Origin: Promethearchaeia archaeon | GTDB taxonomy: Archaea > Asgardarchaeota > Lokiarchaeia > Sigyniarchaeales > SOKP01 | Direction: 5' to 3' | Assembly: GCA_046497275.1 (NCBI GenBank) | Contig: JAWOFX010000088.1 | Span: forward strand, 30,001 to 62,000 | DNA: 32,000 nt | In this document: positions 1,913 to 10,620 of the stretch, piece after piece | How the letters are laid out: each line of letters begins with the position of its first letter | Position numbering within the stretch: the first letter of the stretch is position 1 | Notes under the pieces: model-generated | Databases searched by the model: none | What the model saw: only the letters and a program-made list of their open reading frames with translations | What the model was told of the DNA's origin: nothing | Translations under genes and position numbers: made by a program

Positions 1913-2014
1913 TGGACCTGACGGGAATTGAACCCGTGGCCTCTTGAAGTCCTGGACTCCACGGAAAGTGGAATATCTTGCGAATCAAGCGATCTTCCGC
2001 TGATCTACAGGCCC
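1913..2014 (-). tRNA. tRNA-Ala(CGC) with a 30-nt intron at canonical position 37/38 (intron 1949..1978); CCA not encoded
   Basis: Reverse complement folds as: acceptor stem GGGCCTG/CAGGTCC with the G3:U70 alanine determinant, discriminator A, D stem GATC/GATC, anticodon stem CTTGA/TCAAG, anticodon CGC, T arm ACGGG-TTCAATT-CCCGT. The intron contains the hairpin TTCCAC/GTGGAG. Confidence 0.95.
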
Positions 2015-2963: not shown

Positions 2964-3257
2964 GTTTAATTTATAGATGAAATGATATAGATAATAAATT
3001 TTTTATTAAACTATTGTTTAAGATTTGTATAATCGGATTTATTAACATTAATATTTTTTGCCAAATATTTTGAGATAAAAATAAAATATTTACTTGTATT
3101 GAAAATAAAAAAAATAAAACGTGTTTTTGTCTTATTTTAATCCAAAACTTATGAATTCTTGATTTAAATTATTATATGAGATTATTTTATATAATAATAA
3201 ATTATGTATATGGAAGTTCATTACTTATATCTAAATTATTTAGTAAATTGACTTATT

Positions 3258-4196
3258 ATGGATAAAGAGAGATTCAGAGAATTATTTCAAGATCGATTAA
3301 TCCAAGATGTTGCTCAACAAAAAATAGATATTGTTTTATCTGGGCAATATGGAAAGGCATTAGAATTATTGAGGGATGCTGAAGCTACCGGCTTGTTTCC
3401 TGCTCTAGTAGGCCCCCCTGGAGTTGGCAAAACCATCTTATGCCGCTATTTCGCTAGCTTGCGTTCAAAAGAGAAACAAGGAAGAAACTTTCATTGGTTG
3501 ACGATGGATGAATCAATTAAACCTTCGCACTTTATTGGAAGTTTCGATCCAGCTATAACATTAAAACAAGGCTTTACTATAGAAGCTTTCAATTCAGGTC
3601 CTCTTTTGAGCGCTATGTTAGAGGGAGGTACTTTTCTAGCAAATGAAATAAATAGAGCGACCGAATATTCACAAAATACATTATTAGAACCGTTAGAGGA
3701 GGCATCAATCGGGATCCCCCATCTGGGAAGAATTCAAGCAGATGAGGATTTTTTCTTTATATGTGCTATGAATCCAGAAGAACTTTCTGGAACTCACAGA
3801 TTATCTGAGGCGTTAAAAGATAGAATAAAAGTGTGGATAAAATTAACCTATCCAGAAAAAGCTACTGAATTAGATATTATTCGTATTAATTTACCGGAAC
3901 AATTTATGGTAGAAGAGTCTGAATTGGAACTGATATATTCAATCATCGAGGAAACAAGAAAGAATAAAATAGATATTGAAGTACCAGCTTCGATAAGAGC
4001 AGGCATCGCTATAGCTAAGCTACTAGGAAGAAAAAGATATCTTGAAAATAAAGGACTCGCGGAAGGCAAGGAATCTGTATATGTTCATCTAGCTGATATC
4101 TCTAAGCATGTTTTACTTGGAAGCATCAAATCCAAGCCTGGAGTTAAAGTAGAGAATGTTATTGATGGGATAATAAACAAAACATTAGGAGGATAA
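3258..4196 (+). CDS. MoxR-family AAA+ ATPase
   Basis: Walker A GPPGVGKT; Walker B region FLANEINRA; FFFICAMNP; LSEALKDR arginine-finger region; lid PASIRAG. A vWA gene follows immediately. Confidence 0.9.
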   Translation: MDKERFRELFQDRLIQDVAQQKIDIVLSGQYGKALELLRDAEATGLFPALVGPPGVGKTILCRYFASLRSKEKQGRNFHWLTMDESIKPSHFIGSFDPAITLKQGFTIEAFNSGPLLSAMLEGGTFLANEINRATEYSQNTLLEPLEEASIGIPHLGRIQADEDFFFICAMNPEELSGTHRLSEALKDRIKVWIKLTYPEKATELDIIRINLPEQFMVEESELELIYSIIEETRKNKIDIEVPASIRAGIAIAKLLGRKRYLENKGLAEGKESVYVHLADISKHVLLGSIKSKPGVKVENVIDGIINKTLGG

Positions 4197-4206
4197 ATTA
4201 AAAGTA

Positions 4207-6693
4207 ATGCCCGTCTTCCCTGAGGATCCCTGTGAATTCGCGGTTGAATTTATTCGAAAGATGAGATCCCATCCAGACATAGTCCAAATACCATCTTCAA
4301 GACAAGTATTATCTATACCGCGACTCATTCTTTCTCGATACTATAGAAAGGGGGCAATAACTCCAAATGATTATATTGAAATCAGTAAAGTAACTTCCTT
4401 TCCAGATAATCAAGAATTAGCAAATGATTTGGCTTTTGAGATTCTTTTTCCAAATTATAAAAAAGATATTGTGTCAGATTTCTTTGAAAATGGAATAAAT
4501 GAATCCAATATTGAAGAGGATTTTCTAAGCTCATCTGAGAAAGAAGAATTAGATGAACTCCAAGATCTTATTGATGATATTGAGATGTCTGTAGATACTA
4601 ATAAAATACAGGAAATGGAAGATTTTATAGATGAATTAAATAAAAAGAGAAATGAAGAACCATACAATTCAGCAATGCATTTTTTCAATGACGATTCAGA
4701 ATTATTTAAAGAAGAAATTTCTTCCTTAGAAAATTTGATGGAAGAGGCAAAAAAGCGTCTTATGGAAAAGATAAACTCTCTAGATCCAGAAGACCTAAAA
4801 GCCGCATCAAATTTGGATTTAAATGATTTAATAGAAAAAAACTCAAGGAGAGAATGGGAAAAACTTACAAGTCAAGCTTTGAGAAATCAAGATATTTCTG
4901 AGGATTTAAAAAAATTGATGGAAGAAGGAAAATTCGAAGATCTTATTCAATCTATGAAATTTTTAAAGAACACAGAAGCTCTTCAGAAAGACCAATTTCA
5001 GAAAATGAAGAATGATCTGAAGGATCAAATAAAAAACCTCGATCAACTCTTTAATGCAGCAAAAAATTTAGGAGAATGTCCAAATTTCGATAAAAATAAT
5101 GTATTAAGTAATTCGCTAGATAAAAATTCCTTTGAGCATAATTTCAATCTAGCCAATGCATTAGATCAATATTATGGTACAAATTTGAGAGAAGATTTGT
5201 TAAATAAAATCAATCAAATGTCTAATAATTCTAAAATTAAACCATCTTTAGAAAATCTGACAAAAAATCCTCTGGCAAATAAATCATGGAATTCTCTTTT
5301 TAATAAAGCCCTTGAAAATGCTATGCAAGAAATTGAAAATCAAAAAAGAAGGATAGAAGGATATAAATCACTTTCTCATCAATTACAACAATTAATGAAT
5401 TCTTGTGAGAATATGCATTGTAGCCAAAAGATCTCCCAAAAAATTCCAGAGATGATAAAGAAAACTCTTGAAACAAGTAAAAATCCTTCCGAATTAAGAG
5501 ATGCTGTTGAATTCTTAAGAAAGATTGGCTTAGAGCTCAACTCTAAGGATATTGAAAATATTGGAAAACAACTCAATATGCCAGAGGAGGAAATATTTGA
5601 GTTAATTGAGCCAAATTATCAATTACTTAAAAAATTAATAGAAAAAAATAAAGCAAAATTCGATCGGCTCCAAAATTTAATAAAGCGACTAAAAGATGAA
5701 ATAAACTATGATAGAATGAAAGAACTTCTTAACAGTGCCTTTTCTTCTGACAATAGAGAAGCTTTAGCTGCACTAGGTCATCATGATTTAGGCGAAGCTA
5801 TTAAGGGTGCACAACAAATGGAAGGGCAAGAGGGAGTCGATAAGCTAGTAGCAAGCCTTTCTGCTGGTAGCGGGGAAAATCTATTGAAACAATGGTTTGT
5901 TCATAGAAAAAATTTACCAGAACAAGCTAAAGAAAAAGTAAAGGAGTTAGCAAAAAAAATGTTAATCGAACTTGGGATTTATTATTCAAGAGCTAGACTG
6001 GGAAGTTCCACAACTGGACCAATTCCTGTTAATATTGTTAGACCGTATACTGTTGGGGATGATATTGATAATATAGATTTGGAAGAAACAATATTTAATA
6101 TTCTTGAGAAAGGAAAAAAGCTTTCCCATATAGGTTATGATGATTTTTACGTATATGAAACTGCCAAAGGCCTACGTAGCGCTTGTATTGAGCTGGATAT
6201 TTCTGGAAGTATGACCGGAGATAAGCTGGCATATATGGCCATATGTGTTACTATGTTGGTTTATTCTTTGAAAAAAGAAGAATTAGGATTATGCTTTTTT
6301 GAATCTGACACCCACATTCTAAAAGAAATGGATAAGAAAGTTGAATTGGAAGAATTAGCTGATGAATTATTGACAATAAGCGCTCGAGGAGGTACAAGAA
6401 TTCAAAAAGCTCTTGAGTGGGCGAGAAGACAATTCAAAGAAAAAACGAACTCCCGTGAAAAATTAAATATATTATTTACTGATGCGGAAATCTATGATCT
6501 CGAAAACGCTTTAGAAGAGTTAAGAATATTCCGTTCAATGGGGATTGATTTTATTTTAATCTGTCCTGAAACATCATTTAATCTGGAAGAAGCAAAGAAA
6601 ATGGTAAAAATTGCAGGAGGACAATTACTTAAAATAGATAATTGGGAAGGATTTCCAGATCTAATTGCTGAAATAATAAATAAGAGATTTTGA
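4207..6693 (+). CDS. Large vWA-domain protein (CoxE/YehP-like MoxR partner) with a long helical middle region
   Basis: C-terminal vWA with a complete MIDAS (ELDISGS, GGT, LFTDAE). The pre-vWA segment VRPYTVGDDIDNIDLEETI is typical of MoxR partners. Starts 10 nt after the moxR stop. Confidence 0.88.
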   Translation: MPVFPEDPCEFAVEFIRKMRSHPDIVQIPSSRQVLSIPRLILSRYYRKGAITPNDYIEISKVTSFPDNQELANDLAFEILFPNYKKDIVSDFFENGINESNIEEDFLSSSEKEELDELQDLIDDIEMSVDTNKIQEMEDFIDELNKKRNEEPYNSAMHFFNDDSELFKEEISSLENLMEEAKKRLMEKINSLDPEDLKAASNLDLNDLIEKNSRREWEKLTSQALRNQDISEDLKKLMEEGKFEDLIQSMKFLKNTEALQKDQFQKMKNDLKDQIKNLDQLFNAAKNLGECPNFDKNNVLSNSLDKNSFEHNFNLANALDQYYGTNLREDLLNKINQMSNNSKIKPSLENLTKNPLANKSWNSLFNKALENAMQEIENQKRRIEGYKSLSHQLQQLMNSCENMHCSQKISQKIPEMIKKTLETSKNPSELRDAVEFLRKIGLELNSKDIENIGKQLNMPEEEIFELIEPNYQLLKKLIEKNKAKFDRLQNLIKRLKDEINYDRMKELLNSAFSSDNREALAALGHHDLGEAIKGAQQMEGQEGVDKLVASLSAGSGENLLKQWFVHRKNLPEQAKEKVKELAKKMLIELGIYYSRARLGSSTTGPIPVNIVRPYTVGDDIDNIDLEETIFNILEKGKKLSHIGYDDFYVYETAKGLRSACIELDISGSMTGDKLAYMAICVTMLVYSLKKEELGLCFFESDTHILKEMDKKVELEELADELLTISARGGTRIQKALEWARRQFKEKTNSREKLNILFTDAEIYDLENALEELRIFRSMGIDFILICPETSFNLEEAKKMVKIAGGQLLKIDNWEGFPDLIAEIINKRF

Positions 6694-6708: not shown

Positions 6709-7920
6709 CTAATTTAAGAGAGATAACTTTCTCATCCAAGATGATATTGTTTTACGATCCTTTTTCAATTTTATTGCTATTTCATTAGATGAGAAATTCT
6801 TATGAATAAGATTACATAATAAGGGTTTATAGTAATAGTAAAGTCTGGTATTAGTAAAAGTATTATTCCAAAATCTTTTACATAATTCATTTATCGTATC
6901 TGGTCTCACGGAAAATTCAACTGCCATCTCATCTCTTTCATAACCTTCTTTGATCATAGATATTAGCAGTGGTTTTATGAAGAATTCATCTCTAGCTTCA
7001 AGATAATTCATATCCCAAAATCTTTTTATATATCTATGAATGGTACTAAAATATTTTACCGCTAATTGCTTAGTTATTTTTGTTAGGCTAAATCCCCTCT
7101 CTATCATTGATTTGATACGAAGTTTCATAAAATAATATTTAGCGTCTGAATAAGTTTTATTCCAATATTCATTAATGTAAGACGAAATGATACGTCTTGA
7201 AATATCTAATCCGTGTGCTATATCTTTTAAGAGAACTCCACGACTTAATTTTTCTTTTATCAAATCTTTTAAAAAAAATCTTTTAGCTTCGGATATTGAG
7301 TCAATTCCCCAGTCATTATACAAAATGTTATAAATAAAACTACGATTCCTACCAATTTTCTCAGAAATTTGAATTCCATTATAACCCTTAATAATTAACC
7401 TTTTTATCTCAAATTTCATTAAATAATGCCTAACATCTCTGAGAGTTAAGCCCCATACTTCATTACATTTTGTATAAAGAGCAGTCTTCCCAATTTTTAA
7501 CTCTTTTAGTATATCATTTAATGAATACCCCTGGATAATTAGGTCTTTTAAAACTTCAGTTTCGATGTTTTTATTTTTACCACCAGAACCTCCAGCATCT
7601 TGATTATACCCAAATCTATTACCATGTTCTTGAATATTTGATTTATATAATTTAATATATTCTATTTCTTTCTTATCTAACAGATTAAAAGGAACTTTAT
7701 CTATAATTTCAATTTCAAACTTATCAATTCCCTGGTATCTCATTGAATTGTATAAAGGCGCTAATTCACCAGTTCTTGCACAAGATTTGTGTTGTATCCA
7801 GCGTCTTTTTAAAGTCTGTTTAGTTTGGCCAATATAGACTTTTAAATTTATTAAGTTTGTAATTTTATAGATTATTCCATTTTCATTTAGACTTATTCTT
7901 TTTCTGAGAAATTTATTCAC
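6709..7920 (-). CDS. Free-standing GIY-YIG endonuclease with a C-terminal array of HTH-like repeats
   Basis: GIIYKITN...VYIGQT...RRWIQH...KKEIEYI...GYN: all canonical catalytic positions are present (Y18, Y29, R40, E85, N106). A GGSGG linker leads into the repeats. GTG start. Confidence 0.88.
   Translation of the reverse strand: MNKFLRKRISLNENGIIYKITNLINLKVYIGQTKQTLKRRWIQHKSCARTGELAPLYNSMRYQGIDKFEIEIIDKVPFNLLDKKEIEYIKLYKSNIQEHGNRFGYNQDAGGSGGKNKNIETEVLKDLIIQGYSLNDILKELKIGKTALYTKCNEVWGLTLRDVRHYLMKFEIKRLIIKGYNGIQISEKIGRNRSFIYNILYNDWGIDSISEAKRFFLKDLIKEKLSRGVLLKDIAHGLDISRRIISSYINEYWNKTYSDAKYYFMKLRIKSMIERGFSLTKITKQLAVKYFSTIHRYIKRFWDMNYLEARDEFFIKPLLISMIKEGYERDEMAVEFSVRPDTINELCKRFWNNTFTNTRLYYYYKPLLCNLIHKNFSSNEIAIKLKKDRKTISSWMRKLSLLN
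6712..7551 (-). repeat. Protein-level tandem repeat: five full and one partial 48-49 aa units
   Basis: Conserved Trp at aa 156/204/253/302/351 and Gly at aa 131/179/228/276/326. Unit pattern is approximately I-x2-hI-x2-G-[YF]-x4-I-x3-h-x5-I-x6-W. Confidence 0.85.
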
Positions 7921-8283
7921 CCATTTCTAAAATTTCTAAAAAAATACCTCCTCCCATTAATGAATTTTCACTTTTCTATTTAAACTTCTATAAAATTTGA
8001 TTGAAATATTTTTGGTCTGTGGTTGGAAAGTAAATCAGATTGAAATTCCTTTTTGTAAAAGAATATTAAATTAGTGATACAAATTATTCCAAGAATTAAT
8101 TTATTGAAATTATTCAATAACTTTATTTTAATCGTCTCATTTGAGTCTCTGAACAAAAACACAAAATCAAAGATCTATTAACTATATCTATCAATCTTGT
8201 TAAATTTTATAATAATAAATTATTATTATAGAAAATTTATTCTAGATGTAGAGTATCAATATTATTATATCAAGATTTTAATC

Positions 8284-10620
8284 GTGTCAGAATCAGAACT
8301 CGAAAATTTGATTAGAAGCAAGGTTGGAAATAGTCTTTATAAAAAGGCAAAAGATTTTCCATCCAACAAAATGAATATTATCTCTTTAAAGGAGGATCCG
8401 TTATTTGTAAGAATAATTGTATTTGATAATGATCGTGATTTTCATATTATTATCGATCAAGAAAGGAAAGAAATTTTTCATGATTGTCCATCTTTTTTAA
8501 TCTATTCTGAAAGAGATAAAAAAATTTGTAAACATTTTCTTAAATCATTAATGATTTTAAATCAAGAAAAAGCAATTGAAATATTTAAGAATCTAGATAA
8601 TTATAATCTAACATCAGAGGATTTTGGTTCTAAAAAGAAAAGCCGTAGTTATATTCTTCTTGCTAATAAATGTTTCAATGAATTAGATAATTTTATTGAT
8701 GGATTAAATTATTTAAATAAAGCAATTATTAATCAATCGAATTGCGAATCAATAATAGAAAAATATCTCAATATCGCCTTAGATAAAGGATTATTTATTG
8801 AATTTTTTGAGTTTCTTGAAAAAGGATATAAGAATGAATTTGGTGATTATTTAAGCGAGTTTGAGAAAATTATTGAACGGGGTTTTCGAAAATTCTTAAA
8901 TTCTATTCCCAAATACTCTTTTTATAATTTGTTAAGGATTCTAAACCATTTAGATAGCATCTTCAACTACAAGAATCTTAATTTTATTACTGATTTGTTT
9001 TCAAAATTCAGCAAGATGATTGATTGTAAGAATTTAAATGAAAGATACTTCGCTTCCTATATTCTTAAGAAATATTTTGGTACTTTAGTAAATAATGATA
9101 AAGAAGATTTTAAGATCTCAAAATATGATAAGAAGATGGAGCATTTGAATAATCAACTTGTTGAGTATTTTATTCAGGAAATTGAAAATTTTAGCGTCTT
9201 TGAAAAATTAAAGCTTATGAAAGATCAATTTCAAATATTAGATATCCCTGAAGAAAGATATATAGATAATTATGAAAATTATAGGAAAGAAATTAAAGAG
9301 TTAGAGAAGAAAGTTTATCTAAAAAAATTCATTTTTTTAAAATTTTTAATTGAAAAATATAATATAAAAAAAACTAAAGTAGATTTCAGAAAAAAAAGAA
9401 ACGTATATGTAGTAAATCATGATAAAGAAAATATGAATAATCCTACATATCAATACATTTTAAGTAAAATCGGGTTTTTTGGTATCAATGATTCAACAAT
9501 TAAATCTTCTGATATAGGTATAAATTATTTTATTATTAAAGATCTTTTTCTTGATGATTTTAATGCATTTCCGGACATTTTCTATTATAAAAAACAATTT
9601 TGGGGAGATGAAGAACATGAAATAAATATTAGAGAAGCGGGGGCTCTATTAACAAAAGATAAGGATTATGTGTATAATGTTGAAGAACAATATTCAAACG
9701 ATAAAGTTATGGTTGTTGAGTGGGATCTGGCGTCAACACCGATAAAAGGAAGTCTAGTTCATGCATATAGTTCTCAAATTCTTATTCCAGACCAAAATAA
9801 TTCCCTCTTTCACGATTTAAGACCTTTTGACTTATGTTATTGTATGAAAACACCAACTAAAATTGAAGGGGATATGATTAAAAATATCAACGTAATAACT
9901 AAATGTTCCTTTAAGGATGCTATTAAAAATATATCTAATGGAATGGAATTTGTTGAGGTCTATTATCCTCTCTCGTTGGTGAAATCTGTAGTTAAAAAAG
10001 AAATTAGCCCATTTGAGGCAGAGAAAATCGCATCAACTAACCCCAACAGGCAATTTGTCCCGAATTATAAAAAATTTATAAGAGAATTCCGAAAATTTTT
10101 ATTTAAATTTATCAATAAAAATAGAGAATTTATTTTTAATGATATAAGATATAATCCTGAAGATAACTCTAATCAAATATTAATTTTATTAAATTTATCT
10201 AATGATTTAGCAGGAATGGATTTACCCTATGCGAAACTGATTCAACAAACATTAGAAGAAGATATTCACTTAACTGGATTTAAGCAAAAGATTATTAAAA
10301 ATATTCATATTTATATTCAAGAATTATTAAAAAAAAGAGAAATGGGAAGTACCATTGCTTTTAAACTAAAAAAAATGAAAAACTCTCCATTTATAAAATA
10401 TTTTGATGATATTATTAAAATTAGAAAAGATGAGTTTGAAAGTCAAAAGATTTTGAAATCAGGTAATAAATTTGATATTTCTGAAATAAAAAAGACTTAT
10501 TACGGTACCAAAATATCTCAAATATTAAATCTTGGAGATAATTCCATTATTTCTCCAAAAGAATTTAAACTATTTAAGGAATTAGTTCATAAACTTAATT
10601 TGCACTTAAAAGTAGTATAA
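8284..10620 (+). CDS. Large hypothetical protein with an N-terminal SWIM-like zinc finger
   Basis: FHIIID...IFHDCPSF...KICKHFLK is a SWIM-like HxC...CxH. The likely start is GTG at 8284 (VSESELENL); the ORF-track extension to 8197 is low-complexity I/Y/N sequence. Confidence 0.7.
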   Translation: MSESELENLIRSKVGNSLYKKAKDFPSNKMNIISLKEDPLFVRIIVFDNDRDFHIIIDQERKEIFHDCPSFLIYSERDKKICKHFLKSLMILNQEKAIEIFKNLDNYNLTSEDFGSKKKSRSYILLANKCFNELDNFIDGLNYLNKAIINQSNCESIIEKYLNIALDKGLFIEFFEFLEKGYKNEFGDYLSEFEKIIERGFRKFLNSIPKYSFYNLLRILNHLDSIFNYKNLNFITDLFSKFSKMIDCKNLNERYFASYILKKYFGTLVNNDKEDFKISKYDKKMEHLNNQLVEYFIQEIENFSVFEKLKLMKDQFQILDIPEERYIDNYENYRKEIKELEKKVYLKKFIFLKFLIEKYNIKKTKVDFRKKRNVYVVNHDKENMNNPTYQYILSKIGFFGINDSTIKSSDIGINYFIIKDLFLDDFNAFPDIFYYKKQFWGDEEHEINIREAGALLTKDKDYVYNVEEQYSNDKVMVVEWDLASTPIKGSLVHAYSSQILIPDQNNSLFHDLRPFDLCYCMKTPTKIEGDMIKNINVITKCSFKDAIKNISNGMEFVEVYYPLSLVKSVVKKEISPFEAEKIASTNPNRQFVPNYKKFIREFRKFLFKFINKNREFIFNDIRYNPEDNSNQILILLNLSNDLAGMDLPYAKLIQQTLEEDIHLTGFKQKIIKNIHIYIQELLKKREMGSTIAFKLKKMKNSPFIKYFDDIIKIRKDEFESQKILKSGNKFDISEIKKTYYGTKISQILNLGDNSIISPKEFKLFKELVHKLNLHLKVV

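Follow-up and report, generated by a model that had tools for sequence, protein, structure and literature searches.

How did a gene for a GIY-YIG nuclease with six helix-turn-helix (HTH) units come to lie in the middle of an archaeal operon? The gene occupies positions 6709..7920, on the minus strand, of a 32,000-nucleotide stretch of a Promethearchaeia archaeon genome (assembly GCA_046497275.1, contig JAWOFX010000088.1, positions 30,001 to 62,000; hereafter the window, meaning this whole stretch). It is an open reading frame (ORF) encoding 403 residues, with a GTG start and a stop codon at 6709-6711, and is present in a single copy in the source assembly (3.85 Mb, 98.9% complete). The gene is antisense to both of its neighbours, convergent with the vWA gene on one side, and lies outside any intron or intein. 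We propose that it is a free-standing homing endonuclease gene of the I-TevI/Seg kind resident in a Lokiarchaeia-type Asgard chromosome, a reading to which we assign a probability of about 0.78.

Empty and filled alleles of one insertion site

The site occupied by the endonuclease gene exists in two states among related genomes. In four genomes of the same genus (G002, G004, G005 and G006) the site is empty: the next gene follows vWA directly, at a distance of 0-35 nt from stop to start. Two further genomes of this genus stand outside the count: G001, in which the vWA match reaches the contig end, and G003, which is 61% complete and in which the locus was not searched. The site is also empty in G016, G025 and G031, which belong to the genus of two carriers, G078 and G103, bringing the number of empty genomes to seven. 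The same site is filled in two genera, in at least five assemblies besides the source of the window: in the window; in a JGI contig (L023; endonuclease 71% identical, vWA C-terminus 93%); in G078 and G103 of the other genus (51-52%); in the metagenomic contig L040 (53%); and in the metagenomic contigs L038/L039 (GCA_040961635.1 and GCA_040961015.1; 44%). Across the order, an orthologue of more than 50% identity occurs in only two of 153 other genomes (G078 and G103), and distant members occur in four more. The preliminary description of this DNA had suggested a selfish insertion, and the comparison of these genomes strongly supports a selfish, site-specific one. Among contigs assembled from two DNA and two RNA-library runs, none joins vWA directly to the downstream gene, a search in which contigs cannot reveal rare alleles.

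The element lies inside the 3' end of the vWA gene (4207-6693, plus strand; Pfam VWA match), for which it supplies a diverged replacement. The gene had earlier been described as free-standing, antisense and unconnected to an intron or intein, and so it is; its placement as simply intergenic has to be amended. In total the element measures about 1.6 kb and comprises a replacement for the last ~12-30 vWA codons, the antisense endonuclease gene, and ~340 bp of DNA upstream of that gene. In the window, the replacement end is probably element-borne and takes up the last ~66 nt of vWA (6628..6693, plus strand), an extent that we infer; compared with the closest empty relative, G002, this segment is 71% identical and the rest of the gene 79-81% identical. 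The inserted DNA preceding the endonuclease gene on its upstream side (7921..8258) is non-coding, is without a counterpart in empty sites, and presumably holds the promoters of both the endonuclease gene and the displaced downstream gene. Homology to the G002 empty site resumes at 8259, with a decayed remnant of the native vWA 3' end (8259..8281, plus strand; ending in IIISRF and a stop). This remnant stands at the expected spot and matches G005 at 14 of 14 nt and G025 at 17 of 18.

The boundaries are clearer when the filled genome G103 is compared with the empty genome G025. On the right side, homology resumes at the last 12 native vWA codons (PKLISEIIKSRF and a stop), which stand directly before the start of the downstream gene and are identical to G025 at 35 of 36 nt. 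On the left side, the vWA gene in use ends differently (PKVFSDIINSRF and a stop), with the last 66 nt 74% identical to G025 versus 87% elsewhere. In this carrier, the target is split, and 26% of the positions in the last 66 nt of vWA are recoded. Considering G103 and G078 together, the native end of G025 is matched at 33-35 of 36 nt by the remnant and at 29-30 of 36 by the functional end, and in L038 a 31-codon remnant of the native vWA end is retained. The two diverged copies of the vWA end form direct repeats, which could mediate precise loss of the element.

We looked for a long co-conversion tract in vWA, and only the last ~66 nt stand out. At the vWA end, the empty alleles share DNA-level conservation of the stretch encoding EFPxLISEII, which is the natural candidate for the target. 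On the right flank, filled G078 and empty G025 are ~97% identical over the first ~120 nt (remnant and beginning of the downstream gene), and their vWA genes are ~87% identical; the high value reflects either local constraint or a conversion tract.

A GIY-YIG nuclease tethered to an HTH array

The N-terminal part of the protein is a GIY-YIG catalytic domain (aa 12-108; 7597..7887, minus strand). It matches Pfam PF01541 at aa 15-94 (27.1 bits, with a cut-off of 22.6), and the protein matches homing-endonuclease families in PHROGs at E 1e-18. In an alignment to the structures 1mk0 and 1ln0 at ~30% identity, residues Y18, Y29, R40, H44, E85 and N106 fall on the catalytic residues of I-TevI, which we take to be Y6, Y17, R27, H31, E75 and N90, a numbering backed by the R27A and E75A mutant chains. 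R40, H44, E85 and N106 are invariant in our 12-member family alignment (A1), in which at least 90% of members retain Y18 and Y29. An AlphaFold2 (AF2) model built on the same alignment places the N-terminal domain close to 1ln0/1mk0, with a Foldseek TM of 0.85 and a VIA Z of 13.7 (root mean square deviation, r.m.s.d., 1.6 Å over 87 aa). Matches to N-myristoyltransferases were set aside as due to chance.

A glycine-rich flexible linker (aa 109-119, including GGSGG at 110-114; 7564..7596, minus strand) joins this domain to the array. In the AF2 model, residues 109-116 have a predicted local distance difference test score (pLDDT) below 50 and are predicted to be disordered; G110 and G111 are invariant in A1.

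Six HTH units follow, all encoded on the minus strand: unit 1 (aa 120-167; 7420..7563), unit 2 (aa 168-216; 7273..7419), unit 3 (aa 217-265; 7126..7272), unit 4 (aa 266-314; 6979..7125), unit 5 (aa 315-363; 6832..6978) and unit 6 (aa 364-403; 6712..6831). Unit 1 is 85% identical to its counterpart in the L023 orthologue, with an identical recognition helix. The intact catalytic domain, the GGSGG linker, the tandem units with conserved tryptophans at 156, 204, 253, 302 and 351 (spacing 48, 49, 49 and 49), and all six recognition-helix strings are present just as first reported. The 49-residue periodicity of the array is far above chance: BLOSUM62 autocorrelation over aa 120-403 gives +31 at lag 49, -87 at lag 48 and -166 to -291 at the other lags from 40 to 59, and the mean ungapped inter-unit score, taken in a crude register, lies 8.6 standard deviations above 2000 shuffles.

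The AF2 model has a mean pLDDT of 87.7, with values above 90 throughout the repeats. In this model, each unit is predicted with confidence to be an HTH of three helices (a first helix, a short second one and a third of 12 residues), in agreement with the earlier expectation for the repeats, and a connector helix after the conserved tryptophan runs unbroken into helix 1 of the next unit. The sixth unit, which had been counted as a partial repeat after five full ones, is a complete HTH lacking only the C-terminal connector helix, and carries a Pfam Terminase_5 HTH match at aa 371-398. Units 3 and 4 superpose jointly on AraC/MarA-type DNA-binding domains. The array as a whole is basic, with an isoelectric point of 9.7; units 1 and 5 are without net positive charge.

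By sequence, the units are homeodomain-like HTHs of the HTH_23/HTH_28/HTH_7 kind, and the Pfam models HTH_23, HTH_28 and Terminase_5 HTH exceed their cut-offs in the array. A profile built from 43 units found its best natural solved match in Cbp2 of Hyperthermus butylicus (2LVS; E 9e-7), covering both Cbp2 repeats, followed by the IS5376 transposase (8q4d/8b4h) and then by resolvase and Hin HTHs. The NCBIfam Cbp1 model NF040595 matches weakly, at 21.7 bits against a cut-off of 140. Pfam HTH_18 (AraC/XylS) reaches 12.9 bits, below its cut-off of 33.6, and the resemblance to that family is one of structure alone. A "CAP repeat" in PDB 8vd6 was discarded as a relative, being a computationally designed protein (PMC12339374).

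The individual units have kept their identity across orthologues. Five same-site orthologues have exactly six units, and every unit of the window finds its best match in the unit at the same position of the orthologue, with scores of 55-215 on the diagonal and mostly below 80 off it. The orthologue in L038 (P0028) has seven units; because its units 5 and 6 both match window unit 5, this one unit appears to have been duplicated there. The called ORF of P0028, in L038/L039, carries ~95 extra N-terminal residues.

Across the array, scaffold positions L5, I9, G12, I18, L22, I30, W38 and A/R45-46 are common to all units. Three columns where helix 3 begins (29, 31 and 32) vary from unit to unit and are 71-75% conserved among orthologues. 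This is the pattern that unit-specific base contacts would give, and is indirect evidence for them. Because unit-specific recognition-helix residues are conserved among orthologues, it is plausible that each unit reads its own sub-site; no simple repeat code emerges from the comparison of unit columns. The strict positional orthology of the units is likewise indirect evidence for such reading, and for a TALE-like logic of interchangeable units the natural duplication of unit 5 is a further indirect indication. The two HTHs in Cbp2 and in Pax read 20-25 bp (PMC3597662). By analogy with Cbp2, Pax and MarA, six units could cover ~50-65 bp if each spans about one helical turn. A bolder version, in which the array is a modular and extensible DNA reader whose units, each covering about one helical turn with its own recognition helix, could be added (the seven-unit orthologue being a natural example), removed or exchanged, seems doubtful to us.

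Related arrays occur well beyond this locus. A GIY-YIG domain is present in 18 of the 47 representative clusters retrieved with the array, and the full-length ones have 4-8 units; some array proteins lack the nuclease and have 6-9 scored units. Four metagenomic proteins of 679-834 aa (P0044, P0051, P0053 and P0058) show up to 10-13 HTH units at loose thresholds, and no GIY-YIG domain was found in them by phmmer or among the best 25 Pfam rows. A tblastn search of the array against 50,697 phage records gave no match. The nearest neighbours by features and structure are phage GIY-YIG proteins of 195-363 aa with HTH_23, HTH_7 or HTH_28 (score 0.94-0.95). The preliminary description had seen no parallel for such an architecture, a claim now weakened: phage GIY-YIG proteins with one to a few homeodomain-like HTHs are common, and ~18 metagenomic clusters share the long array. 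It had also asked whether repeat number varies among homologues, which it does, from 4 to 8 units with 7 in one same-site orthologue; the architecture is variable, and not that of a known family of fixed design.

Proposed homing, its alternatives and the host operon

We propose the following homing cycle. The protein would act as a monomeric tethered nuclease. Because each connector helix leads without interruption into the first helix of the following unit, adjacent units would be held in an AraC/MarA-like geometry, and the array would lay six different recognition helices, all of them binding DNA, along a long asymmetric site of roughly 50-65 bp. The target would be the conserved vWA 3' end in alleles without the element; the nuclease would cut beside it, and repair from a filled allele would copy the element in. 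The insertion would split the target and so protect the carrier, with vWA staying intact, and the native 3' end would be pushed against the start of the next gene, where it would now persist as a decaying remnant. The element in the window may still be capable of this cycle.

Several observations weigh against this interpretation. The remnant in the window is short (~20 nt), and convincing only through the clearer cases of G103, G078 and L038. Between the two genera, the replacement ends show no more similarity than the rest of vWA (73% versus 72-73%), and therefore allow no dating or direction of any transfer. Divergence of the endonuclease roughly tracks that of the hosts, and the distribution is accounted for about equally well by recent homing and by ancient vertical descent in which precise loss occurred repeatedly; both are part of the usual life cycle of such elements. 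At the level of the protein, TIGR01453 (group I intron endonuclease) scores 40.8 bits, below its cut-off of 56.05, and the Pfam NUMOD1, NUMOD3 and I-TevI DNA-binding models give no match to the 403-aa protein at E<=1; one unit of the family member P0039 does match NUMOD1 (33.3 bits, with a cut-off of 22.8). Pairs of units with their connector match MarA-DNA (1bl0), AdpA, Rns and SoxS with Z 8.5-10.4 over ~100 aa at an r.m.s.d. of ~3 Å, but a Z of ~10 among helical repeats can mean a shared arrangement alone. Finally, the sole Shine-Dalgarno-like motif upstream of the predicted GTG start of the endonuclease lies ~26 nt away.

The strongest alternative is that a former homing endonuclease has been domesticated for a host function, as a regulator of the MoxR-vWA operon or as a provider of a promoter, with its nuclease idle or repurposed. 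Between the window and L023, the ratio of nonsynonymous to synonymous substitution rates (dN/dS) is 0.15 for the endonuclease at a dS of 1.2, and 0.05 for vWA at a dS of 0.93. Because dN/dS is 0.15 overall and 0.06-0.35 in every HTH unit, the endonuclease gene has been under purifying selection, and the two dS values fit co-divergence since a shared insertion. Such selection over a long divergence (dS ~1.2) is what domestication would give, and it is also expected of a homing endonuclease that is still cycling. Domestication would also fit the position of the downstream gene, which is cut off from its operon and so must be expressed from inserted DNA.

A further point in its favour is a second site on the same operon. 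Distant members of the family (29-32% identity, 5-6 units) lie directly upstream of the MoxR AAA gene in G012 (L002, G012:C179), G065 (L027, G065:C30) and the P0030 contig, and this spot is a second target site on one operon. One of these members sits between a D12-class methylase gene and the AAA gene; the corresponding spacer in the window (2964-3257) is empty. Against domestication stand the seven relatives in which the operon is intact and contiguous without the gene, the rarity of close orthologues in the order, the retention of all catalytic residues, and the broken copies found elsewhere. We consider domestication unlikely.

Quite unlikely, in our judgement, is a stranded relic, intact by chance or through recent arrival and now inactive, whose array is a structural solenoid with only one or two units binding DNA. 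The lack of net positive charge in units 1 and 5 would suit such a relic, known GIY-YIG enzymes need just one HTH plus accessory elements, and degenerate relatives do exist. Two distant members, L032 (G012:C44:16548-20204) and L010 (G028:C4), are broken by in-frame TAA stops (1 and 3, respectively); these are decaying copies, as expected late in the life cycle of a homing endonuclease. In the window gene, by contrast, every unit shows the low dN/dS given above, and five orthologues, with identities as low as 51%, have retained six units that correspond strictly by position. Several parts of the endonuclease gene are matched at 100% identity by contigs from two metatranscriptome libraries of a single study, a weak hint of expression given that DNA carry-over is possible.

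One RNA-library contig that is identical to the gene (7620-7917) ends 1-3 nt inside the predicted GTG (7918-7920), with adapter sequence right after it. If the end of this single contig at 7917 is a true 5' end, the transcript is leaderless or the start codon lies elsewhere.

A defence or restriction-type nuclease, whose array would recognise foreign or modified DNA for the GIY-YIG domain to degrade, possibly together with MoxR-vWA, is very improbable. In its favour, some restriction enzymes do contain GIY-YIG domains (PMC1564403), a methylase gene acting on DNA is found close by (2127-2963), and the sole PADLOC match is to a generic "HEase" model (E 2e-5). Against it, neither the protein nor its three neighbours match any defence-system model beyond chance, I-TevI is the closest match of the catalytic domain, and presence or absence at one specific site, together with a duplicated end of the target gene, is characteristic of homing elements and not of defence islands.

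Of the invaded operon, the window contains a MoxR-type AAA gene (3258-4196, plus strand; Pfam AAA_5 match), the vWA gene and the displaced downstream gene (8284..10620, plus strand), which are contiguous in the empty loci of relatives. The start of the downstream gene is likely GTG 8284 and not TTG 8197, because the vWA remnant sits 2 bases before the former. The first ~29 codons of the longer ORF (8197-8283) overlie inserted DNA and the vWA remnant and are without a counterpart in relatives, whose proteins align only from aa 22-35 of the long ORF; in empty sites the start codon lies 0-35 nt past the vWA stop. Pfam gives no match for the 778-807-aa downstream protein, and its earlier label of "SWIM" comes from a motif reading alone. 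Divergent from the operon is the N6/N4 DNA methylase gene mentioned above (minus strand; Pfam N6_N4_Mtase, E 2e-64). Beyond it, Rfam detects a 102-nt tRNA at 1913-2014 (minus strand, 57.6 bits), presumably an archaeal intron-bearing tRNA gene; ARAGORN reports no tRNA in the window, this one included.

Relation to known systems

Close counterparts are I-TevI, from the td intron of phage T4, and I-BmoI, which share the catalytic fold and residues and likewise tether the nuclease to a separable, modular DNA-binding region ending in an HTH. The present gene differs from theirs in that it is not intron-encoded, resides in an archaeal chromosome, and encodes six homologous HTH units instead of one. 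Its linker is ~10 aa long, whereas that of I-TevI is long and includes a zinc finger, and the protein is without the minor-groove helix (NUMOD3) or a match to the I-TevI DNA-binding model. In genetic setting, the nearest counterparts are the Seg endonucleases of T-even phages (e.g. SegB, PMC2330249), which are also encoded by free-standing GIY-YIG genes located between, or at the edge of, conserved genes. Both the Seg genes and the present gene are sporadic among relatives and spread with flanking DNA; the Seg endonucleases, however, are phage proteins with short DNA-binding tails.

The design of the insertion resembles that of mobile open reading frames (mORFs) in fungal mitochondria, described in Allomyces atp6 and in Glomus atp6, atp9, cox2 and nad3 (PMC3630166). 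These elements also enter at the 3' end of a host gene, supply a diverged in-frame replacement C-terminus, and leave a nearly host-identical remnant downstream. In contrast to the mORFs, the endonuclease gene here runs antisense instead of being joined in phase to the host gene; its host is an archaeon, and the piece that it duplicates is shorter (12-31 codons). Among the fungal mORFs of that description, most encode LAGLIDADG enzymes, and only the atp9 one a GIY-YIG enzyme (PMC3630166). An archaeal chromosome shows the same design as mitochondrial mobile ORFs, and the locus, with both allele states, a recoded end of the target gene and a remnant of the native one, amounts to a clean natural experiment.

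The pairing of domains is also known, from phage GIY-YIG proteins with HTH_23 or HTH_7 (ESM Atlas clusters; phrog_314), which at 195-363 aa are too short to hold a six-unit array. We found the regular six-to-eight-unit array with helical connectors only in the ~18 metagenomic clusters and in Lokiarchaeia-type genomes. Tandem homeodomain-like HTHs, in turn, occur in Cbp1 and Cbp2, archaeal CRISPR-repeat-binding proteins with three or two units, of which Cbp2 reads a ~25-bp site (PMC3597662). Both are small, independent proteins whose linkers are flexible and basic and which lack a nuclease, unlike the six units and nuclease found here. The AraC/XylS domain (MarA 1bl0, Rob, SoxS and AdpA) supplies a structural parallel, in that two consecutive units of the modelled array, with their connector, superpose on its two-HTH domain; in MarA, the two recognition helices insert into consecutive major grooves on the same face of the DNA. 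In the present protein, this arrangement is predicted to be iterated five times, with no sequence membership in the family.

GIY-YIG homing endonucleases have been catalogued from phages, bacteria and organelles. A 2006 census of the GIY-YIG superfamily listed no orthodox homing endonuclease in archaea (PMC1564403). Our literature search found no description of a tandem-HTH GIY-YIG long-array family, nor of GIY-YIG homing elements in Asgard genomes.

The I-TevI nuclease domain has already been fused to engineered DNA-binding arrays, and here a monomeric GIY-YIG cutter comes naturally attached to a long regular array whose connectors are rigid and whose unit number changes in evolution. If the units read DNA independently, this scaffold would be worth engineering. 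Were the modular reading that we doubted above nevertheless true, the family would be a naturally occurring nuclease on a rail of programmable HTH units, aimed at targets of at least 50 bp, and a third natural repeat-array solution beside zinc-finger and TALE proteins, already joined to a monomeric GIY-YIG cutter.

Overall, the element is of an already known kind: a free-standing gene for a GIY-YIG homing endonuclease whose DNA-binding tail is modular, in an insertion that replaces the end of a host gene. What is new is the length and regularity of the array, with its six to eight units joined by helical connectors, the presence of such an array in Asgard archaeal chromosomes, and the association of the family with one operon.

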